Sequence record: OP870143.1
From: Escherichia phage vB_Eco_F22
Strand: one strand, 5' to 3'
DNA: 64,000 nucleotides
Position numbers and translations under genes: made by a program. Below, piece by piece: positions 4,645 through 64,000 of this stretch. The notes beneath the pieces are model-generated. The model searched no databases, had not been told where the DNA came from, and worked only from the letters and a program-made list of their open reading frames with translations. How positions within the stretch are numbered: the first letter of the stretch is position 1; every line of letters starts with the position of its first letter.

Positions 4645-5150
4645 TGGTTGTTAATGGTAATTCTCTATATCGCTCATCTCAGTTGCTGGATGTTCCAGAC
4701 CATAAGGTATCTGAACATGGTGTAAGCTATGGATTAGGTGAAGCTGGCTACGATATTCGTATCAAACAGGACATTACCTTCTATCACTTATTTGGGTTGA
4801 TTCCAATGGTGAAGGTCGTTGATGGAAATCAAGTATCACGCCATTTCGGTAAGTTCACATTGGCTTCAGCAATTGAGAAGTTCAACATGTCCCCTTCCTG
4901 TGTAGCTATCGTTCACGATAAGTCTACATGGGCAAGACGTGCATTATCAGTGTTCAATACCGTAATAGAACCAGGATGGAAAGGGTATTTGACTCTTGAA
5001 CTGGTCTATCATGGTCGTAAGAAACTACATATCCCGGCTGGTGCTGGGATAGCTCAAGTATTATTTCATCTGGTTCAGGAACCTGCTAATTACAACGGCA
5101 AGTATCAGAACCAGGAAAATCAACCAGTAGCTGCAAGAAGCAGTAAATAA
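4644..5150 (+). CDS. dCTP deaminase / dUTPase-family protein
   Basis: 168 aa with the GEAGYDIR motif typical of the dUTPase/dCTP-deaminase fold; start overlaps the upstream stop (ATAATGG). Confidence 0.6.
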   Translation: MVVNGNSLYRSSQLLDVPDHKVSEHGVSYGLGEAGYDIRIKQDITFYHLFGLIPMVKVVDGNQVSRHFGKFTLASAIEKFNMSPSCVAIVHDKSTWARRALSVFNTVIEPGWKGYLTLELVYHGRKKLHIPAGAGIAQVLFHLVQEPANYNGKYQNQENQPVAARSSK

Positions 5151-5369: not shown

Positions 5370-5442
5370 GTAGCTGCCTAAATAGCCCAGCATAGTTGGG
5401 CTATTTGTGAAGAAACTAACTCAACCCCACATAGGAACTATC

Positions 5443-5703
5443 ATGGAATCTTTAGCAGCAATCCTTATTCTGTTATTTGCACTAGCTGTATACCTTATCC
5501 CTACCATTATTGCTTTTGCACGGGGCCATGCCTCTAAGTGGGGAATTGGTGTACTCAACATCGTATTAGGCTGGTCTTTGGTCTTCTGGGTAGTAGCACT
5601 GATTTGGTCACTGTCTAATAAAGGACAGTCTCAGACTACAATCGTTAACGTTGGTAGTGGGAACCAATACAACGTGTCTCAAACGAGCCAGTCTGATAAG
5701 TAA
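5443..5703 (+). CDS. superinfection-immunity-like small membrane protein (Imm-type motif)
   Basis: Motif IIAFARGH-x5-GIGVLNIVLGWSLVFWVVALIWSL resembles the superinfection-immunity membrane family; ATG at 5443 with AGGAA RBS is preferred over the GTG at 5407. Confidence 0.5.
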   Translation: MESLAAILILLFALAVYLIPTIIAFARGHASKWGIGVLNIVLGWSLVFWVVALIWSLSNKGQSQTTIVNVGSGNQYNVSQTSQSDK

Positions 5704-55279: not shown

Positions 55280-55305
55280 ATAAAAGCCCCCTCGGGGGCT
55301 TTCTT
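55280..55305. terminator. intergenic GC hairpin of the AAGCCC family between the two tail genes
   Basis: aaagccccc-tcg-ggggcttt. Confidence 0.45.
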
Positions 55306-58300
55306 TAAAAGAATTGAGAATCAATTGAGTAGGTAATTGTCCCACGTAATTCAGCAGTAGGAGTAATGTCCGATTCTAATAGTGCTGTCGTAGCCTCTTC
55401 AGGCTGTTTAAGTATTTGAATTACATTAGACCCTCTATTCATTACTACAGAAAGTTGTGGGGTTCCTGGTTGCAATCCAGTATATGCACTAATAGTACCA
55501 CTTGCAGCATTCTTAGCAGGGTAGGGCATATTACGTATTTGCATAGCACCCGTTTGACCACCTGCACCATTAAGCTTAATAAAGAACTCTACGGTAACTG
55601 TATTACCTGTTTTAGTGTACTTAATATCTTTAGTAGCACCTCCCACATCTGAGGTTACTGAACCAAAAGTAATAGCTGCAAGGGGAACGTCAGCAGTTTC
55701 ATTCCATGCCTCAAAATTGATGAGGTTGGAATCTCCAGTTACAATATGTATAAACTTGTTGCTGCCAGTATTAACAATAATCTTAGAGCCAGCAGCATTA
55801 GCACTTACCCCAATCTTAGGCAGTTCTCCATTAGAGAAACGTCCATTGTTAAAGACAATATGGTTGTTAGGTCCATGTATCCACATATCCCTGGAGTATG
55901 TAGTTCCATATGCTAAAAAAGTATTAAATATGATAAAGTTATCATTACCTACTGAAATTAAAGGGTTTTGCTCATTTGTTTTAGGCAAGCAATAAAAATC
56001 ATCAACAGTCATATCATTGCCAGAATTAAAATGAGCAGCTACCCCATAACCTGCATCAGTAGCAGATGGTAACTCAGAACCACAACCACTAATGTGAAGT
56101 CCATTGTTATTGTCAAAGTAATAGGCAGTACGCACCGTACCATCAGAAGCACAGCTTTGCATATTACCATATTGATGATTCAGGATACGGTACGCCCCTG
56201 GTGCAACAGAAGGATCTGTTACTTTAGCAAAACAGTTTCTATAGTTAGCGGACGTACCACCCTCATGTAATATCTGACCCCAGGCACTAATATTACTAAT
56301 TTCAGTCATCCACACTTCTTTCATCCAAAGTGCAATTTTGGTTTTTAGAAAACCAAGATGATGCAGTTTAAAATTATGACCTTGTAATATTACTAAACCT
56401 GCTTCGCCCCCAGAGTCATCCCCCTCAAAGGTAATCCCCTCAATTATAGTACCAGCAGGGAAAGAATTTGCTTGGGGTTGATCTGGGTTAACATAACCAA
56501 CTGTATCTACTGTTAATGGCCCTACTGGTGTACCACTACCCATAGAAGAGGTCAGTGTAATGGTATCATTACCAGTCTTTTTAATACGTCTGGTTGAAAT
56601 AGGTATAGACCTACTTTCGGTAAACCTTAAGTCGTGATTACCTATATATGTTTCATACGAATCAAACATATAACCTGTAGATGGTGCTGAGAAACCATTT
56701 CTAATGTTGGCATATGAAATATCCAAAGCACTTTTAACATCCATAGCAGTATTAGTTATGGGTTCTTCATAACCAATGGTTGTTGCACCACCAATTGCTG
56801 CTAATTCTTGTTTATGCTTGGGTACTAAATCTTCCGCTGAATTTGGCACCCCAGAGTCATCCCCCTCAAAGGTAATCCCCTCAATTATAGTACCAGCAGG
56901 GAAAGAATTTGCTTGGGGTTGATCTGGGTTAACATAACCAACTGTATCTACTGTTAATGGCCCTACTGGTGTACCACTACCCATAGAAGAGGTCAGTGTA
57001 ATGGTATCATTACCAGTCTTTTTAATACGTCTGGTTGAAATAGGTATAGACCCACTTTCGGTAAACCTTAAGTCGTGATTACCTATATATGTTTCATACG
57101 AATCAAACATATAACCTGTAGATGGTGCTGAGAAACCATTTCTAATGTTGGCATATGAAATATCCAAAGCACTTTTAACATCCATAGCAGTATTAGTTAT
57201 GGGTTCTTCATAACCAATGGTTGTTGCACCACCAATTGCTGCTAATTCTTGTTTATGCTTGGGTACTAAATCTTCCGCTGAATTTGGCACAGGAGTTAAA
57301 GATACAACTACATTACCAGGCTGGTAAGTTAACTGACCATTACTAACGGATGCAATGTATACATTAGTAGGCAAAGCAGGTAACCCATACGCCTTCTGTT
57401 CACTAACAGAGTAGACAATCTTCTTATCATTTAGGAATTGAGTGGTGTCAGTACTAAGAATTACCTCACTATCCTTAACGTTAGCTGCACGAGCCACTTC
57501 CTGAACAGTATGGTCTACTATTTCAAGTATCTTAGCTTCCCCACCTAACTGGACAATCAAACGATCATTGGTTGCTAATGGTTCAGTAAGAATGATTTGG
57601 TTGTTATCTGCGTCAATTGTATAGGAGTTATTGGCTAACCCTTTGTAGAATCGTAAACCATTTTTATATACAGCTGGTACAGATTGGAAGGTATAGGGGA
57701 TATCAATTACCTGTTCCCCACCTACAGCAGCTCCATGGTTGTACAACCAGTTAAGGGTTACCCAATCGGAAACGTTAGGATTATCTGGGGTTGCAGGAAC
57801 ACCAGTACGCATTACTACTACAAAGTCACCCGATTCCAGTGGCGTAGCGAAGCTAACCTCAAAAGCTACTGGGTCGTACTCAAAATCATATCCCTCAGTC
57901 TGCCAGTCACCATTAACAATCATAAAGGGTGCACCAGCCGTTTCATCCGGGATACGAATGGTAGTCTCACCACCATTAGCAGAACCAGAGTTATAAATCC
58001 ACGGGATGTATCCACCATCATTGGTAGACTCGCCACCATCTCCACCAGTACCTGAAGTAGCTACCTTAACCCATGAACCAGTTGCAGTAACATCATCCGG
58101 GATGACTCCAGTACGATCACCCTCTACGTACAAGTAGTCAGTAACCTGACGGTCACCAGCAGGAGTCTTATCATAGATACGGGCAAAGGTAGCCTTAGTA
58201 GTTAATGCTTTAAGTTCTGCTTCAGACTGTACACCAAGAACCATTCCATACTGGTTCAGGAAGTCGTAGATAAGTTTCAGGTTACCCAAGTTACAGTAGA

Positions 58301-58427
58301 CAGTACGAACCACGTGGTAAGCATTACCAAGCAGTGCATCTACCATCGGGTCATTGGAACTGTTCTGGCAGTAAGGATTGGTCCAATCCTGTTTTGCATC
58401 GAAGGGGGTATGTGCGTTCATCGCCAT
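55305..58427 (-). CDS. large tail appendage/receptor-binding protein with an internal tandem domain duplication
   Basis: 1040 aa; a 147-aa segment (PNSAEDLVPKHKQELAAIGG...ITFEGDDSG) occurs twice in tandem. Confidence 0.6.
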   Translation of the reverse strand: MAMNAHTPFDAKQDWTNPYCQNSSNDPMVDALLGNAYHVVRTVYCNLGNLKLIYDFLNQYGMVLGVQSEAELKALTTKATFARIYDKTPAGDRQVTDYLYVEGDRTGVIPDDVTATGSWVKVATSGTGGDGGESTNDGGYIPWIYNSGSANGGETTIRIPDETAGAPFMIVNGDWQTEGYDFEYDPVAFEVSFATPLESGDFVVVMRTGVPATPDNPNVSDWVTLNWLYNHGAAVGGEQVIDIPYTFQSVPAVYKNGLRFYKGLANNSYTIDADNNQIILTEPLATNDRLIVQLGGEAKILEIVDHTVQEVARAANVKDSEVILSTDTTQFLNDKKIVYSVSEQKAYGLPALPTNVYIASVSNGQLTYQPGNVVVSLTPVPNSAEDLVPKHKQELAAIGGATTIGYEEPITNTAMDVKSALDISYANIRNGFSAPSTGYMFDSYETYIGNHDLRFTESGSIPISTRRIKKTGNDTITLTSSMGSGTPVGPLTVDTVGYVNPDQPQANSFPAGTIIEGITFEGDDSGVPNSAEDLVPKHKQELAAIGGATTIGYEEPITNTAMDVKSALDISYANIRNGFSAPSTGYMFDSYETYIGNHDLRFTESRSIPISTRRIKKTGNDTITLTSSMGSGTPVGPLTVDTVGYVNPDQPQANSFPAGTIIEGITFEGDDSGGEAGLVILQGHNFKLHHLGFLKTKIALWMKEVWMTEISNISAWGQILHEGGTSANYRNCFAKVTDPSVAPGAYRILNHQYGNMQSCASDGTVRTAYYFDNNNGLHISGCGSELPSATDAGYGVAAHFNSGNDMTVDDFYCLPKTNEQNPLISVGNDNFIIFNTFLAYGTTYSRDMWIHGPNNHIVFNNGRFSNGELPKIGVSANAAGSKIIVNTGSNKFIHIVTGDSNLINFEAWNETADVPLAAITFGSVTSDVGGATKDIKYTKTGNTVTVEFFIKLNGAGGQTGAMQIRNMPYPAKNAASGTISAYTGLQPGTPQLSVVMNRGSNVIQILKQPEEATTALLESDITPTAELRGTITYSIDSQFF
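56408..57290. repeat. tandem direct duplication, 2 x 441 bp with a single mismatch
   Basis: Copy 1 ~56408-56848 and copy 2 ~56849-57289 are identical except T at 56612 versus C at 57053. Confidence 0.85.
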
Positions 58428-59134: not shown

Positions 59135-60745
59135 TCACACAATGTATGAACGTAGTGGGTTAACACTATCTTCTTCTTCCTCATCCCACATTGGGTCACC
59201 CTTGTTATCCACCAGAGTCATACCTGCTTGTGGTTTCCAAGGATTGAGATAACCCAGCATGGAGATAGTATCAATACAGTCATCCTTACCTTTAATCCCA
59301 TTAATGGTAGCTAGTTTAATCTGGCCCATGAATAAACCCATAATAGTTGTATCTCTCAACTCTTCCGGGAAGTACATCTTACCAGCCTTGAACCAAGGAA
59401 CTACCAGGTTAAAACGTGACAGTTTAGAGGTTACAGGACGGATGCCGGGCTTACCACCCTCAGAGGATGCAAAGTTAAAGAAGACATTACGGTTAATCAT
59501 TTCTTTCTGAAGGAGTGATATGAATCCATTTTGCTGCCCTGTAATTTCGACCCCAACATTTTGTGGTTGGTATTCCTGAACCAGACGGAACAAGTCGTCA
59601 AAGTTCTTATCCATAAGCTGGCGATTAGCCACACCGTCAACCCAGAACCAATCTCCATTAGAACTATAAGCCCAAACTGATATGACACTGTAGTCACTAG
59701 TCTGTTTCTCCGAAGTAGCGAAGTCAGTTGTAATGTAATAGTTATAGCAGGACTTCATCCTCAGTAACTGTTGCCTGCTGTACCATTTAATCTCGCTATC
59801 CTGAACAAGACGTTCATCTTCAGAACTAATACGAAGCATAAGTTCCTGGTAAAAGCCAGCCAGCTTACCAGTCTTAACTGCCATATCGTATTGGGCTTTG
59901 ATGTAGTCATATGAGAAACGGTCATCCCATGCACCCTGAAATTCTTCCCTACTACATGGAAATTTTTCACACACAGGCCATACGTTAACATCCCATGCAC
60001 CGGACTCAACTGCTTCAATAATGATGTCTTCCTTATTAAAAGGAGTACCATTGAAGATTACTTTACGACGTGTCGGGTCAAGAGCATGGTTCACACCTTT
60101 ATAGACAGTATCCTTAATAGCTTCCATGCTTGTTTTAGAGTTAGCATCACCGTCACTAATTAAGTCATCCAGTACACAGAGTGTTGGACGCTTACCATAT
60201 ATCTTCGTACCACGAAGACCGGTCTTAGCACCAAATAACTTAACACCTAGTCGATGTCCTTCTGCATTACGAAACTCTAACAGGTTATCCGTAAAGGTAG
60301 CTTCAGGTATCCACTGCTGAAGGAACTCACTATTCTTGTATCGAAACTCAATGTTCTTACGTGCAGACTTAGCACCGTTATCCATTGAGTCAGATACGTA
60401 AATCATTCCTTCTACCTTACCCAGACTAGGTAAGTGACCAAACACTGCCAAGAATAGAGTAAAGTATTCCATGAACACAGCAGTCTTACCTGCACCACGG
60501 AAGCAAAGGTTAACTACATACTGGTTCGGGGTAATCATCTTATCCAGCATCTTTAGGTGAACTGGGGGTGTTTTGTTAGATTCACCTTCTTTGCCATTAA
60601 CCAACTTAATAAAGTTGGCAAAGGTAAGAGCAAACTGACTAGGAACATAGTTGGATGAATTGAGGTAGGAGTAATCCACCTGGTCTAGCCATTCATCCAG
60701 TTCCTGTTTAAGTAACTCAGACATCTGTAATGTCCTCATCTGCAC
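59135..60745 (-). CDS. terminase large subunit
   Basis: Walker A CFRGAGKTA, Walker B LCVLDDLIS, C-terminal nuclease-like acidic residues; 536 aa. Confidence 0.75.
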   Translation of the reverse strand: MQMRTLQMSELLKQELDEWLDQVDYSYLNSSNYVPSQFALTFANFIKLVNGKEGESNKTPPVHLKMLDKMITPNQYVVNLCFRGAGKTAVFMEYFTLFLAVFGHLPSLGKVEGMIYVSDSMDNGAKSARKNIEFRYKNSEFLQQWIPEATFTDNLLEFRNAEGHRLGVKLFGAKTGLRGTKIYGKRPTLCVLDDLISDGDANSKTSMEAIKDTVYKGVNHALDPTRRKVIFNGTPFNKEDIIIEAVESGAWDVNVWPVCEKFPCSREEFQGAWDDRFSYDYIKAQYDMAVKTGKLAGFYQELMLRISSEDERLVQDSEIKWYSRQQLLRMKSCYNYYITTDFATSEKQTSDYSVISVWAYSSNGDWFWVDGVANRQLMDKNFDDLFRLVQEYQPQNVGVEITGQQNGFISLLQKEMINRNVFFNFASSEGGKPGIRPVTSKLSRFNLVVPWFKAGKMYFPEELRDTTIMGLFMGQIKLATINGIKGKDDCIDTISMLGYLNPWKPQAGMTLVDNKGDPMWDEEEEDSVNPLRSYIV

Positions 60746-61406
60746 GTACTAGTTTAGAACCAGCAATCTCTTTAGTAGGTACACCACTATTGATTGCATT
60801 AATTTGCTGTTCAGCTAATGCAGCAAGTGTTGCCTTGAGGTCAGTCAACCCGGAGTTCTCTCTCAAGTCCAGATTGATATTCGTTACCTGGTCTTTTGGT
60901 TTAGCTAAATGAGTAAGGATAGAGTTAGCTGCATCACATCTTACTTTCTCGCTTGCTGCTGTAGTCATTAGTTCAACCTGAACATTGATTGCCTTCTGAT
61001 AATTGTCTTGGTTCACAATCCACACTGGAACCAAACTTTGTTCCATGATGAGGTTAACTAACTTACCTCTGTGGTAAGCAGATACATAAGCACTGATATC
61101 TTTCTCACTGGTTCCTCGTGCTACAAGTTCTGCTTGTCGGTTAGGGAATGTCTTGAAGTAGGCTTCCTTATTTGAGTAGCCCATGTGTTTGTAAGTCACA
61201 TACTGAACTGCATTCATGTAGTCCTGTGTCTTAAACTTACCTTCCTTCATAACACTAGAGTAAGAGATGAAGTTTTCACGAAATGCCTCAGCAACCAGTT
61301 GGTCTTGGGTTACGTTGTTAATCGTGTCTACCAACTCCTGGCTTACACTGTTCTTGAAGTTAGCAGGTAAGGCATTAATGATCTGCTGCTTAGTTAGCTC
61401 ACTCAT
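60717..61406 (-). CDS. putative terminase small subunit / packaging protein
   Basis: 229-aa ORF immediately upstream of and overlapping the terminase large subunit gene; first gene of the late strand. Confidence 0.4.
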   Translation of the reverse strand: MSELTKQQIINALPANFKNSVSQELVDTINNVTQDQLVAEAFRENFISYSSVMKEGKFKTQDYMNAVQYVTYKHMGYSNKEAYFKTFPNRQAELVARGTSEKDISAYVSAYHRGKLVNLIMEQSLVPVWIVNQDNYQKAINVQVELMTTAASEKVRCDAANSILTHLAKPKDQVTNINLDLRENSGLTDLKATLAALAEQQINAINSGVPTKEIAGSKLVRADEDITDV

Positions 61407-61468
61407 ACTTATCTCTCTACAAAGTTATGTCTATTAACGAAGATTCTTTTCTTGGGGTGAGATACCCC

Positions 61469-61497
61469 TTGAAGAAACTCTATCACACAGTTACACT
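61469..61497 (+). promoter_or_regulatory. candidate sigma70-like promoter in the divergent intergenic region
   Basis: ttgaag - 17 nt - tacact, about 80 nt upstream of the first array gene. Confidence 0.2.
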
Positions 61498-61577
61498 TTA
61501 GTCATGATATAGAAAAAGTTCATGATACTAAATAGTATGTAATGTTCCGATGACCCTATCCCCAAAAGGAGTAACCT

Positions 61578-61868
61578 TTGAGAATATTTATGAGAGTCCT
61601 CGACTCTAAAGACGAATACAAGGAGCTAGACCATACCAAGGCTGGTATTCTACCGGATGATATTATCATTACACATGATGAAAATACCTACCATGAATTA
61701 GCTGGGATGATGCTGTTAGAGAATCGTCCAGGCATTAAGATCTTAGAACCAAGTGAAACTTATACTTTAGATAAAATGGTTTCCTCTCTTGTGTTCTTTA
61801 CAAAATTACCTCATAGTGTCTCCATCAAACGAAGCAAAGATAGCGTTCGGATGACGGTGACGATGTGA
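61578..61868 (+). CDS. small protein, paralogue family member 1
   Basis: TTG start with AAAGGAG RBS; shares the core IIITHDENTYHELAGMMLLEN...ILEPSETY with the five downstream ORFs. Confidence 0.5.
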   Translation: MRIFMRVLDSKDEYKELDHTKAGILPDDIIITHDENTYHELAGMMLLENRPGIKILEPSETYTLDKMVSSLVFFTKLPHSVSIKRSKDSVRMTVTM

Positions 61869-62016
61869 TTAGTCATACCGCCTAGTAGACAGTGGCGGTA
61901 CTCGTAAAGAGTTAATAACTTCTACAGTCAGGGTTCCCCGGCTCCTTTCCTACTCCGTAGGTCTAACGGTACATAAGTACCTAGGGGGATGAACTGACCC
62001 GTGATTGAAAACGGTA

Positions 62017-62056
62017 AGGGGTAGAGTCGAGAGGCTCTACCCCATTTCTTTTTCTG
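62017..62056 (+). terminator. Rho-independent terminator
   Basis: ggggtagag-tcgagagg-ctctacccc followed by atttctttttctgg. Confidence 0.65.
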
Positions 62057-62069
62057 GAGGCATGCAATT

Positions 62070-62468
62070 ATGAGCATCTACTGTTTTGATATTGATATTA
62101 CCGGTGTACTGCATAAGCAAGAACCCTATCTCCTGGGGGAACCAGAAGCAGTAAGTAAGTTCATTGCCCCGTGGCAATCAGTATTCCTACCTGACTGTGA
62201 AGAATCCCATGAGGTCATTGGTTCTCTTTTCTTATCCAACCTTCAGCTTAACACTGAGATACTTACTGAACCAAAGGTATACGACCTTACCCGCTATGAT
62301 GGATTCAATGAGTTCTTCCCCGGTGTACGCTTCTATAAGATAGACGGTTGGGAATTGATAGCTGACCATAACGTCTTTAATAAAACACTTTCCATTTACT
62401 TCAGACCTATCCCTAAAGGAAGGAGAATCAATCATGAAATTCTTAATGACAGCCCCCAGTTTTGTTAA
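62070..62468 (+). CDS. small protein, paralogue family member 2
   Basis: Core VFLPDCEESHEVIGSLFLSN...ILTEPKVY; 132 aa. Confidence 0.55.
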   Translation: MSIYCFDIDITGVLHKQEPYLLGEPEAVSKFIAPWQSVFLPDCEESHEVIGSLFLSNLQLNTEILTEPKVYDLTRYDGFNEFFPGVRFYKIDGWELIADHNVFNKTLSIYFRPIPKGRRINHEILNDSPQFC

Positions 62469-62748
62469 AGGGGAGTCCATGTACACAACTGACTTCTCTT
62501 TAGAAGAAGTCATGAATAGCAAACCACAGCATGTAATCCTGGTTCCTACCTTAGAGGATTACCATGAAGTAAGAGGTCAACTCTTCCTAGCAGGTAATGA
62601 TCGTAAGGTTGTGTGTATCATTCCTCCTTCCGTCTATATAGATAGTAGTGCTTATGACGCTATACCCTTCATGTTGGTATCCGATGACTACCAATGGGAT
62701 ACCAGTTATGAGAATGAGGAATACCATTACTACTATGTAAGGAAGTAG
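62434..62748 (+). CDS. small protein, paralogue family member 3
   Basis: Strong RBS AAGGAAGGAG; core VILVPTLEDYHEVRGQLFLAGN; 104 aa. Confidence 0.55.
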   Translation: MKFLMTAPSFVKGESMYTTDFSLEEVMNSKPQHVILVPTLEDYHEVRGQLFLAGNDRKVVCIIPPSVYIDSSAYDAIPFMLVSDDYQWDTSYENEEYHYYYVRK

Positions 62749-62751
62749 GTT

Positions 62752-63072
62752 ATGCATCCGTACTGCCTCATTAGTTTTGCCACTACTTGCTATTTATCCC
62801 CATACACACTGGATAATATTCTGGCAGGTAGGGGTAGAGTTACCACTATCTTATACGAGCCAAGTGAAGAAGCAGATGTGTTCGTTGGTACTTGCTTAAT
62901 GTTGGGGCAACCTATCCGATTCGTTAAGATAGAAGATTCCGTAGAAATACCGGAACACACCTCCGTGTACATACTCTCTGAGAATGAACCTATGGTAGCT
63001 ACTACTCTTACAGGGAGACTCATTACCCTATATCCTTCCTCATATTTATCTAGCGACGAGTGTACCAAATGA
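62752..63072 (+). CDS. small protein, paralogue family member 4 (divergent)
   Basis: Core TILYEPSEEADVFVGTCLMLGQ; 106 aa. Confidence 0.5.
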   Translation: MHPYCLISFATTCYLSPYTLDNILAGRGRVTTILYEPSEEADVFVGTCLMLGQPIRFVKIEDSVEIPEHTSVYILSENEPMVATTLTGRLITLYPSSYLSSDECTK

Positions 63073-63407
63073 GTAGAGTGCTATTCCTACATCAATATAC
63101 GGATGAAGTTTCTTTTTACTCTGGGAACGTCACTAAAGCTATTGAGTGGTTATTGCTGCAAGACTGTCATATGCTCATGCTACCGGGTGAGTTAGCAGAT
63201 AGTACTCGTGGTTCTATTCTTCTACTTAATAGTCCAGCCAAGTTAACCATCCTTAATCCAGGAGAATCCATAAAGATACCTGCTGGTGAATCTGCATTCT
63301 TGTTCTTTGAACCAAGGATAGAGGAAGGGTTTGTTGGGCTTACTATAGATAGTAGACCTAATAAAGATTTTAAAAGAGTAAGGATTATATCTCATGAAAC
63401 TTACTAA
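63060..63407 (+). CDS. small protein, paralogue family member 5 (divergent)
   Basis: Core LMLPGELADSTRGSILLLNS; 115 aa; start overlaps previous stop. Confidence 0.5.
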   Translation: MYQMSRVLFLHQYTDEVSFYSGNVTKAIEWLLLQDCHMLMLPGELADSTRGSILLLNSPAKLTILNPGESIKIPAGESAFLFFEPRIEEGFVGLTIDSRPNKDFKRVRIISHETY

Positions 63408-63720
63408 GATAGGTTATGCTGGTGGACCTAACCCCACTATCCATACAACCTTGCAAGACCTTGAACCAAGAAGGCTCACTCCTATTATTCTAGTACCAGA
63501 TGAGCAAACACTACACGAAGTGAAAGGTCTGGCTCTAATACTAGGTAAGAAGGTTATTGTAAAACTACATGAACCAGGAAAGGCATTACCATGGTCCTCT
63601 TCCTTGTACTCCCCCTGGCATGTGAATACGGATAAGTACACTCTTACCTTCATCATGAGTGATACCTTACAATCTCCCCATTTGGTATACGCTCCCTCCT
63701 ATTTAACTGCTTATAAGTGA
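63394..63720 (+). CDS. small protein, paralogue family member 6
   Basis: Core IILVPDEQTLHEVKGLALILGK; 108 aa; start overlaps previous stop. Confidence 0.55.
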   Translation: MKLTKIGYAGGPNPTIHTTLQDLEPRRLTPIILVPDEQTLHEVKGLALILGKKVIVKLHEPGKALPWSSSLYSPWHVNTDKYTLTFIMSDTLQSPHLVYAPSYLTAYK

Positions 63721-63922
63721 GATAGTTATAATATTTTTGCATACCAATTTGGTCATAGCTATGTGTAACTGTAGTGGTGTGGCAGGGGCTACACCCTTAC
63801 ACTCAACCATCCCCCCCGGTATGTTGACCGTGTAGCCACTACCCTACCCCACCTTACACGTTACACGTTGCTCCGCAACCTATGGACATGTCGTCCTATC
63901 ATCAACTATTGGAGCTATCATC

Positions 63923-64000
63923 ATGACTACTACCGCTACTGTACGTATGACCGCAGGAACTTTACTTGGTACTGTTAACTCTGCTGCAACAGTAGTAGCA
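63923..64000 (+). CDS. 5' end of a gene running off the window (partial CDS)
   Basis: ATG at 63923 with GGAG RBS; open to the window end (MTTTATVRMTAGTLLG...). Confidence 0.3.
   Translation, partial: MTTTATVRMTAGTLLGTVNSAATVVA

Follow-up and report, generated by a model that had tools for sequence, protein, structure and literature searches.

In this study, we have found that six consecutive small genes at the right end of an N4-like coliphage genome encode a single small alpha/beta protein family, two members of which (m4 and m5) are tied more weakly to the rest, and that the gap between the first two genes encodes a previously undescribed RNA that is conserved across the N4-like phage family. 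The window, i.e., the whole stretch of DNA that was analyzed (64,000 nucleotides of Escherichia phage vB_Eco_F22, OP870143.1), is that of a G7C-like N4-like coliphage (Gamaleyavirus).

Layout of the right-end module

[quoted passage not shown] All six plus-strand open reading frames (m1 to m6) are present where an earlier sequence-only reading of the DNA had placed them. The module has the following features:

60717..61406, minus strand: gp69 homologue, small-terminase-like, the conserved gene that bounds the module on the left
61407..61577, no strand assigned: divergent intergenic region, presumed to bear promoters, with a hairpin GGGGTGAGATACCCC and two TCATGATA repeats
61578..61868, plus strand: m1, type A, N4 gp70 homologue, 96 aa, TTG start, PHROG 7213
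61874..62017, plus strand: core of the conserved structured RNA, ~145 nt, matched by covariance models R1/R2
62018..62053, plus strand: intrinsic terminator, 11-bp stem, 4-nt loop, T-run
62070..62468, plus strand: m2, type B, N4 gp71 homologue, 132 aa, PHROG 9160
62434..62748, plus strand: m3, type C (G7C gp71.1), 104 aa, 35-nt overlap with m2
62752..63072, plus strand: m4, type D (G7C gp71.2), 106 aa, diverged, AD in place of HE
63069..63407 (ATG start) or from GTG at 63060, plus strand: m5, type E, 112 or 115 aa, PHROG 12606
63394..63720, plus strand: m6, type F, 108 aa, PHROG 16338, the hub of the family network

The gp69 homologue shares 77% identity with N4 gp69 and 63% with its JWAlpha counterpart. 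Next to it, the intergenic region 61407..61577 is near-invariant across 12 Gamaleyavirus loci and varies less than does the m1 coding sequence. Its presumed promoters could not be assigned to any class, and neither m1 nor m2 had a convincing promoter in a sigma-70 scan. A candidate promoter, TTA(C/G)ACTTTAG, upstream of m1 was rejected, since it was not enriched in the window (4 matches versus 3.6 expected). The TTG start of m1 was unchanged in 12 related phages, and Moonfish has no later ATG.

Although the array had been described as lying outside the conserved N4-like core, this was only half right: m1 is 36.6% identical to N4 gp70 (E 2.6e-25), m2 is 22.5% identical to N4 gp71 (E 3.2e-7), and N4, KP8, and Achromobacter phage JWAlpha all have the same order of gp69, A gene, terminator-bearing gap, array, and terminal repeat. 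The right-end genes of N4-like phages are labeled hypothetical in all of the records examined.

Downstream of m2 the genes are tightly packed: besides the 35-nt overlap of m2 and m3, there is a 3-nt spacer between m3 and m4, an ATGA overlap between the m4 stop codon and the m5 ATG at 63069, and a 14-nt overlap of m5 and m6. The Shine-Dalgarno sites and the overlapping start and stop codons of the array genes are conserved, and m2 to m6 probably constitute a translationally coupled block. The earlier description of the genes as overlapping start to stop therefore holds for m2 to m6, which overlap or abut, but not for m1, which is separated from m2 by a 201-nt gap that contains the structured RNA and the 11-bp intrinsic terminator.

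Paralogy and variation of the array proteins

The proposal that these genes form a tandem array of six diverging paralogues was confirmed. Alignment revealed a common core that consists of a hydrophobic strand, P, E, HE-h-x-G, a hydrophobic helix, a strand, and P, with the AD variants of m4 and m5 visible in the family alignment. When per-type profiles were compared with hhalign, the best 20 of 190 pairs were all array-array pairs (E values of 3.7e-7 for C-F, 8.8e-7 for A-F, 7e-5 for B-C, and 7e-4 for D-E). An iterative HMM built from m6 orthologues gathered every type in the window and included no decoy, reversed, or unrelated ORF; m5, prior to its inclusion in the profile, went from an E value of 6e-3 to one of 9e-4. 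Strong links joined m1, m2, m3, and m6 with one another and m4 with m5 as a pair. The bridge between the two groups was weaker in the shuffle test, in which the m1-m5 score was reached by 2 of 1,000 shuffles and the m4-m6 score by 8 of 1,000, and m4 was joined to the other members chiefly through m5. For every member, the similarity exceeded that of the shuffled, reversed, and unrelated-ORF controls, and the shuffle and decoy results rule out chance similarity among unrelated ORFs. Two further types present in related arrays, G (K13) and H (K19), could not be linked to the family in profile comparisons and were excluded.

The family takes in N4 gp70 and gp71 and is covered by six PHROGs (7213, 9160, 11661, 12099, 12606, and 16338), all of them of unknown function. 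Each member from m1 to m6 matched one PHROG (1e-43 to 1e-64), and PHROG 16338, that of m6, was also matched by m1 (2e-4) and m3 (5e-4). The family had no match in Pfam-A or the PDB at accepted thresholds, by sequence or by fold, and none in PADLOC, which holds defense proteins rather than their inhibitors; no enzyme family was matched by the array proteins, and no named inhibitor was present among the Pfam, PDB, and BFVD matches. The family is thus uncharacterized, as had been suspected. Literature searches yielded no account of the paralogy of the array or of the RNA in the m1-m2 gap, and the mutual paralogy of the N4 gp70/gp71-type genes has so far gone unrecorded, these genes being assigned to separate PHROGs with no Pfam family.

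A search of 1.84 billion representative proteins returned 20 representatives, of which 19 were real and came from N4-like phages; the other (P0360, 575 aa) was a repetitive, unrelated protein and was discarded. Matches to the family numbered 712, 358, and 325 database proteins, with the longer source contigs mostly about 70 to 75 kb in length, and homologues range from E. coli phages to Achromobacter phages.

Fold comparison covered the models of m5 and m6. The AlphaFold2 model of m6 had a pLDDT of 82 and a pTM of 0.74; that of m5, a low-confidence model (pLDDT 67), had the same strand-helix-strand core. All BFVD matches of m6 at an E value of 0.03 or less were small N4-like phage proteins or unnamed entries; the named ones comprised five KP8 proteins, several Achromobacter phage proteins, and a protein of the N4-like phage OLB145, and Pseudomonas phage Zuri appeared at E values of 0.05 to 0.5. 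The matches of the low-confidence m5 model overlapped those of m6. Sequence comparison detects the family in Enquatrovirinae-type and JWAlpha-type Schitoviridae, and fold comparison extends it to the wider Schitoviridae; because the family HMM, even when iterated, did not reach the distant environmental Schitoviridae (L044 to L102), the distribution across the whole Schitoviridae is that given by fold matches only.

Copy number varies among related N4-like phages, as a comparison proposed at the outset had anticipated: there are between two (N4) and eight (Moonfish) family members per phage. A constant A-B-C-D prefix, stable across Gamaleyavirus, is followed by a reshuffled suffix, and the nearest relative of each window gene is found in a different phage. 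The family has expanded by tandem duplication, and close relatives swap whole cassettes. Purifying selection on the array genes is about ten times weaker than that on the neighboring core gene (dN/dS of 0.18 to 0.29 for every array type versus 0.02 for gp69), and divergence from N4 shows the same disparity, with gp69 77% identical and m1 and m2 22 to 37% identical. Since dN/dS stayed below 1 and gene-wide positive selection was absent, an arms race is not demonstrated. Frameshifted or truncated array copies occur in UE-S5a and Bp4.

A structured RNA and terminator between m1 and m2

The RNA consists of a P1 hairpin, a three-way junction, and a 3' hairpin, with a pseudoknot in which GUAGA (61885-61889) pairs with UCUAC (61921-61925). 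Two unpaired motifs are conserved, AAUAAC (61914-61919) and CUCCUU (61942-61947); the latter, as (A/C)CUCCUU, is identical to the core of the anti-Shine-Dalgarno tail of 16S rRNA. The RNA was present in 40 of the 70 sources searched, and covariation was observed at 28 of 30 pairs, with 90.9% paired compared to 57.9% in shuffles and with none of 500 shuffles reaching the observed score. The pseudoknot, which lies outside the covariance model, was also supported (94.5% paired versus 75.5%), and the minimum free energy z-score of the RNA was -3.35. No Rfam 15 family (4,227 families, including phi29 pRNA, tRNA, and tmRNA) matched inside the element at an E value of 1 or less, none matched the N4, JWAlpha, L043, L044, or L066 loci, and ARAGORN found nothing. 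The sole Rfam match in the window was a chance match to mir-279 (E 0.98) that lies outside the element.

The terminator that follows the RNA ends 17 nt upstream of the m2 ATG, with a Shine-Dalgarno sequence, GGAGG, after it. It is kept in 12 of 12 loci, and N4, KP8, and JWAlpha likewise have a terminator there. A terminator directly after the RNA, with a neighboring gene that starts 33 to 75 nt past the RNA core, is present in the window, N4, KP8, Jgk1, L033, L043, and JWAlpha; at many distant loci, the next ORF is 100 to 470 nt from the core. Inspection by eye established no consistent alternative pairing that could serve as an antiterminator, and pairing of CUCCUU with the downstream Shine-Dalgarno sequence or a terminator arm was inconsistent between lineages.

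The sequence-only reading had placed all six genes on one transcript, which is doubtful given the strong terminator and the conserved RNA between m1 and m2. Expression of m2 to m6 would require either transcription past the terminator that follows the RNA or an internal promoter. As to timing, our best guess is that the array is made in mid-infection, extrapolating from LUZ7, which has a different right-end family and in which transcripts from mid-infection span the right-end cluster (PMC9163698).

Possible functions and related systems

Our preferred reading, to which we give slightly less than an even chance, is that the right end is an accessory module that encodes a repertoire of middle-phase, nonenzymatic binding proteins for host interaction or counter-defense. 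The proteins would be binding modules rather than enzymes, since members that are still maintained have AD, YN, or other residues in place of HE. Neither the H nor the E is retained in m4, m5, or several type C-like relatives, and for this reason the HE motif was dropped as a catalytic site. Made in the middle phase, the proteins may target the host or competing phages, and the composition of the repertoire may be tuned by the gain, loss, and swapping of cassettes. Counter-defense is a possible role. Several points were counted against the preferred reading: gene-wide positive selection is absent, the sole documented anti-defense hotspot of N4-like phages maps to another locus, between the primase-polymerase and vRNAP genes (bioRxiv 10.64898/2026.06.04.730250), and the stable A-B-C-D prefix fits a conserved phage-internal role equally well. 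The weaker tie of m4, the low-confidence m5 model, the unlinked types G and H, and the extrapolation of timing from LUZ7 were likewise weighed against it.

We consider it unlikely that the gp70/gp71-family proteins instead bind the pseudoknotted RNA, either autoregulating read-through or forming a functional RNP. In favor of such a system, an A-type gene sits directly upstream of the RNA (4 to 8 nt in Enquatrovirinae and ~70 nt in JWAlpha-like phages), the RNA and the protein family occur together in N4, KP8, JWAlpha, L042, and L043, the terminator immediately precedes the m2 ribosome-binding site, and the final ~85 nt at the 3' end of m1 are nearly invariant as DNA. It is quite unlikely that many Schitoviridae right ends encode an undescribed RNP or regulatory system composed of an RNA that displays (A/C)CUCCUU and proteins of this family; were this so, the system might sense a signal and gate expression of the variable array, or it might interfere with translation initiation or with factors acting at the 16S 3' end.

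A role at the genome end in DNA metabolism, as accessories to replication, concatemer processing, or packaging, is also improbable. The array adjoins terminase genes and the terminal repeat, its A-B-C-D prefix is conserved, and the LUZ7 right end is transcribed in mid-infection alongside replication genes; indeed, the LUZ7 authors guessed at a DNA metabolism role for their own right-end cluster (PMC9163698). However, a copy number of two to eight, free cassette swapping, and divergence about ten times that of the adjoining core genes argue against such a role, and the same site in LUZ7 holds an unrelated family, as would be expected of a dispensable accessory site more than of a core function.

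The sequence-only reading had favored host takeover, which in its immediate-early form, driven from a single cotranslated six-gene transcript, we regard as very unlikely. The proteins are small and mostly acidic, and their genes are tightly packed on the early/middle strand; however, N4 DNA enters the cell starting from its left end, which carries all of the vRNAP promoters (PMC4496689), the array is at the opposite end, the strong terminator parts m1 from m2, and the LUZ7 right end is transcribed in mid-infection (PMC9163698). That the array is evolutionary debris, i.e., functionless duplicated ORFs or chance similarity, is highly improbable and already largely refuted, since the lack of a known function, the narrowness of the family, and the broken copies in UE-S5a and Bp4 are outweighed by the low dN/dS of every type, the conserved Shine-Dalgarno sites and overlapping start and stop codons, homologues that persist from E. 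coli to Achromobacter phages, the confidently predicted m6 fold, and the shuffle and decoy controls.

Six PHROGs and N4 gp70 and gp71 merge here into one lineage-specific family that probably shares a fold and has no solved relative. N4-like phages are widely isolated for therapy, and because even near-identical phages carry different numbers of copies and different cassettes, the array genes are concrete candidates for strain-specific host range or counter-defense effects. The RNA would bring a conserved noncoding element into a phage family noted for its unusual transcription and provides a starting point for studying array expression. It resembles a transcriptional riboswitch in that its fold is covarying, pseudoknotted, and multihelix and in that an intrinsic terminator comes next, ahead of a ribosome-binding site; unlike the gene behind a riboswitch, however, the downstream gene is not adjacent in distant phages. 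It also resembles phi29 pRNA in its length (~150 to 180 nt), its three-way junction, its covarying loop interaction, and its location near a genome end.

The array is reminiscent of the anti-signaling hotspot of N4-like phages, which encodes Acb4-Sequestin, Bes1, Bes2, and Tad proteins (bioRxiv 10.64898/2026.06.04.730250). Both are variable accessory loci in the same phage family, and the hotspot proteins are small and functionally redundant, with a role of the sort that the sequence-only reading had proposed for the array; however, the hotspot lies elsewhere than at the right end, and its proteins showed no similarity to those of the window in any search. In LUZ7, 29 small ORFans (gp87 to gp115) occupy the syntenic site, on the plus strand right after the gp69-like gene (PMC9163698), and they likewise form a cluster of overlapping, small paralogous genes, at least 16 of which are linked by BLAST at an E value of <1e-3. 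The LUZ7 proteins differ in being ~65 aa long with a KYxKE motif; they were rejected as members of the window family (best E 0.41 against the family HMM), and the structured RNA of the m1-m2 gap was not detected in LUZ7 (best R2 E value, 0.83). The direct homologues of the array are N4 gp70 and gp71 and G7C gp70, gp71, gp71.1, and gp71.2, which occupy the same site between gp69 and the right terminal repeat. The N4 gp70-gp71 gap contains the same RNA and terminator as the m1-m2 gap; N4 has two family members and a 42-aa gp72, whereas the window has six.

Six genes at the right end of the genome

The six plus-strand ORFs that the sequence-only reading placed at 61578-63720 (m1 to m6, representing types A to F) are all present as described. 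The 68 phage records matched by megablast of 61400-64000 all belong to N4-like phages of Escherichia, Shigella, or Klebsiella in or near Gamaleyavirus; phage E20 is the top match (90% identity). The counterparts in G7C are gp70, gp71, gp71.1, and gp71.2, after which comes the terminal repeat; since the G7C genes precede that repeat and the gp69 homologue and large terminase lie on the left, the array occupies the extreme right end of the genome.

Features of the array region
60717-61406, minus strand: gp69 homologue, left boundary of the region, with the large terminase
61578-63720, plus strand: array ORFs m1 to m6

The genes had also been said to overlap start to stop. This description fits m2 to m6, which are tightly packed (a 35-nt m2/m3 overlap, a 3-nt m3-m4 spacing, an ATGA shared by m4 and m5, and a 14-nt m5/m6 overlap), but not m1, which is set off by 201 nt of noncoding sequence with a terminator (11-bp stem) at its end, 17 nt 5' of the m2 ATG. 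The TTG start of m1, 7 nt 3' of a GGAG, is invariant in 12 related phages, and phage Moonfish lacks the later m1 ATG. Phages KP8 and JWAlpha have the same layout: the gp69 homologue, an A-type gene, a terminator-containing gap of ~250 nt, the array (genes of ~105 aa), and the terminal repeat.

Downstream of m6 (63721-64000), the sequence enters GGCAGGGGCTAC, similar to the TGgGGGGCT motif that is conserved at the G7C left end, and an ATG then follows at 63924. Judged from this sequence, the window apparently crosses the terminal repeat and enters the early region of the left end, an arrangement like that of a circularly permuted or concatemer-like assembly. Separately, a 441-bp unit at 56408-57290 is present in exactly two tandem copies (99% identity) inside a tail fibre or tailspike gene, the 1040-aa ORF on the minus strand at 55305-58427; this in-frame doubling of a protein segment of ~147 aa may reflect either a genuine recent duplication or an artefact of assembly.

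Only two columns are invariant in a plain six-way alignment of m1 to m6; therefore, controls were needed to assess homology. In a search of 38,880 PHROG families, every member matched its own family at 1e-43 or better, and m1 and m3 both cross-matched PHROG 16338 (E-values of 2e-4 and 5e-4). The locus was fetched from 17 related phages, the ORFs were clustered into types, and the type profiles were compared by hhalign, with unrelated small ORFs of these loci, grouped in nine clusters, as controls. The top 20 of 190 pairs were all array-array (including C-F at 3.7e-7, A-F at 8.8e-7, B-C at 7e-5, and D-E at 7e-4), and the first control pair appeared at a P of 0.024. An iterative HMM seeded with type F was used to search the array proteins, 138 ORFs from elsewhere in the window, and reversed sequences; it recruited types C and A, then type B and ORF clusters K34 and K31, then type E, then type D, and zero decoys. 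Before its inclusion, type E scored 6e-3 and then 9e-4, versus 0.64 and 0.05 for the best decoys, and type D scored 3.6e-4 after type E was included. The full-length identity of m4 and m5 is 31%. On the basis of these controlled comparisons, m1, m2, m3, and m6 can be firmly assigned to one family and m4 and m5 firmly related to each other, whereas the joining of the two groups carries moderate confidence; with that qualification, the paralogy proposed earlier is upheld.

An AlphaFold2 model of m6 (81-row alignment; pLDDT of 82, pTM of 0.74) has the order strand-strand-strand-helix-strand-strand-strand-strand. All of its BFVD matches at an E-value of 0.03 or below were small uncharacterised N4-like phage proteins or unnamed entries; the named matches included proteins from PhAPEC7, PhAPEC5, phi G17, EC1-UPM, and N4-like phage OLB145, five from Klebsiella phage KP8, and several from Achromobacter phages JWAlpha, JWDelta, and Axy. 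Weaker matches (E-values of 0.05-0.5) were to four Pseudomonas phage Zuri proteins. The m5 model was weaker (pLDDT of 67); it has the same central strand-helix-strand unit, and its BFVD matches overlap those of m6, including a 108-aa KP8 protein.

Among 1.84 billion representative proteins, a profile search gave 20 matches, 19 of which were evident members, all from N4-like phages; the other was a spurious repeat protein. Word-indexed searches returned 712, 358, and 325 proteins, and the longer source contigs were mostly ~70-75 kb. A family HMM built from Gamaleyavirus, Moo19, and N4 sequences only found five KP8 genes and two JWAlpha genes, the gp70-like gene among them. One type-D (m4-like) protein is listed in NCBI as an Enterococcus faecium hypothetical protein (P0334, on a 2.76-Mb contig); this record is probably contamination or misassembly with coliphage sequence.

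Copy number, mosaicism, and selection

The make-up of the array varies across related N4-like phages, from A B in N4 to eight genes in Moonfish.

Array composition by phage
N4: A B
G7C: A B C D
Window, E20, pSb-1, VTCCBPA_322: A B C D E F
ST4, Mimir124: A B C D E E
IME11: A B C D E G E
PGN829.1: A B C D F G E
SP5M: A B C D F E
phi G17: A B C D G H F
Moonfish: A B C D F G H F
Moo19: B C x x D F x

Types G (cluster K13) and H (K19) are cassettes of ~105-125 aa within the arrays of seven loci (L005, L009, L010, L011, L012, L013, and L016); their carriers are Moonfish, IME11, phi G17, CU10EC, PGN829.1, UE-S5a, and Bp4. A sequence link from G and H to the array family was sought and none was found; therefore, these types may be either highly diverged members of it or insertions with no relation to it.

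The nearest relatives of the window genes sit in different phages (ST4 for m2 and m5, VTCCBPA_322 for m3 and m4, and E20 for m1 and m6), which, on sequence grounds, indicates that the array is a recombinational mosaic. The dN/dS ratio is 0.18-0.29 for every type versus 0.02 for gp69, and identity to the N4 homologues is 77% for gp69, 37% for m1, and 22% for m2. These values indicate that the array genes are functional, yet evolving approximately ten times more freely than the core.

A conserved pseudoknotted RNA between members 1 and 2

The m1-m2 gap contains a conserved pseudoknotted RNA followed by a terminator, which was also located in other phages and in more than 30 metagenomic loci.

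Locations of the RNA element
Window, 61874-62053: pseudoknotted RNA with a three-way junction, then an intrinsic terminator, between the gp70- and gp71-type genes
N4 (locus L006), 5372-5503: RNA element
KP8 (locus L019), 2679-2857: RNA element
JWAlpha (locus L022), 4824-4972: RNA element

In a 12-locus Gamaleyavirus alignment, three stretches are near-invariant: the region between gp69 and m1, the final ~85 nt of m1, and the entire m1-m2 gap, whose few changes are compensatory. The coding sequence of m1 varies freely. RNAalifold predicted a P1 hairpin, a long stem around two hairpins (the three-way junction), another hairpin, and the terminator, and the window RNA had a folding z of -3.35. With a seven-sequence covariance model, the element was recovered from N4, KP8, and JWAlpha as well as from metagenomic relatives. 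A second model, applied to 70 sources (the window plus 69 Schitoviridae loci, mostly retrieved via gp69), detected it in 40. In the gp69-anchored loci, every match was upstream of gp69 and on the opposite strand.

In the alignment from the second model, both sides had changed in 28 of 30 pairs, and 90.9% of cells were paired, compared with 57.9% for shuffles and no more than 49% for slid controls; none of 500 shuffles reached the observed score. The pseudoknot pairs the 5' part of the P1 loop with the segment immediately 5' of a conserved CAG. At one position the pairs were UA (16), CG (14), and GU (3) and at the next GC (17) and AU (15), with zero mismatches; 94.5% of cells were paired versus 75.5% in shuffles, and again 0 of 500 shuffles reached the observed score. 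Since a covariance model cannot encode a pseudoknot, the alignment was not fitted to it. Conserved unpaired motifs include AAUAAC and, at the junction, (A/C)CUCCUU, which matches the core of the anti-Shine-Dalgarno tail of 16S rRNA. The element had no match among Rfam 15 families, either in the window or in five other loci, and ARAGORN found nothing.

Near-invariant DNA in the 12 phages at 61407-61577 and 61784-61868, despite a variable remainder of m1, suggests overlapping regulatory or RNA elements there. Conserved elements around m1 comprise a hairpin (GGGGTGAGATACCCC), two TCATGATA repeats, and a GTTA(C/G)ACTTTAG motif that is also present in loci L040 and L043; a promoter class was sought for them, and no assignment was reached.

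Possible roles and other right-end systems

The array is a tandem, lineage-specific family that varies in copy number, exchanges cassettes, and is under relaxed purifying selection. A literature search found no description of its paralogy or of the RNA element. We postulate that its products are non-enzymatic binding modules of the middle phase that would form an accessory host-interaction or counter-defence repertoire, with m2 to m6 expressed through terminator read-through.

As the sequence-only reading had noted, the motif has diverged in members 4 and 5: AD replaces HE in both, and several type-C-like relatives have YN or other residues, replacements that argue against a catalytic role. 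Five of the six proteins are acidic or near neutral (pI of 4.5-6.1), and m6 is basic (pI of 9.2). In Enquatrovirinae and JWAlpha-like phages, the next gene begins 33-75 nt past the RNA core, just 3' of the terminator; more distant phages keep the RNA with its own terminator, and the next ORF is up to hundreds of nucleotides away, so that the element may act as an independent RNA, either instead of or in addition to serving as a leader. Two of the rival explanations are an RNA-protein system and a role of the proteins in DNA metabolism at the genome end.

Host takeover, another of the earlier proposals, fares poorly in its immediate-early sense: according to the N4 review, injection starts with the left end, which alone carries the vRNAP promoters (PMC4496689), so immediate-early expression of right-end genes is unlikely. 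Non-functional debris is at odds with the dN/dS values.

As for the proposed accessory repertoire, an anti-CBASS/Thoeris hotspot of N4-like phages has been mapped in a 2026 preprint to the interval between the primase-polymerase and vRNAP genes (bioRxiv 10.64898/2026.06.04.730250), unlike the right-end array of the window. The syntenic right-end site of Pseudomonas phage LUZ7 (locus L103, 68698-74345) holds gp87-gp115, 29 'ORFans' that are covered by mid-infection transcripts (PMC9163698), and the RNA element was sought there and not detected. The LUZ7 cluster is likewise an array of paralogues: its proteins are largely one family of ~65 aa with a hydrophobic-KYxKE motif, different from and unrelated to the window family, and at least 16 of the genes are linked at a BLAST E-value of <1e-3. 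Because the same site holds another such array, the right end seems to be a general site of small-gene family expansion in Schitoviridae.
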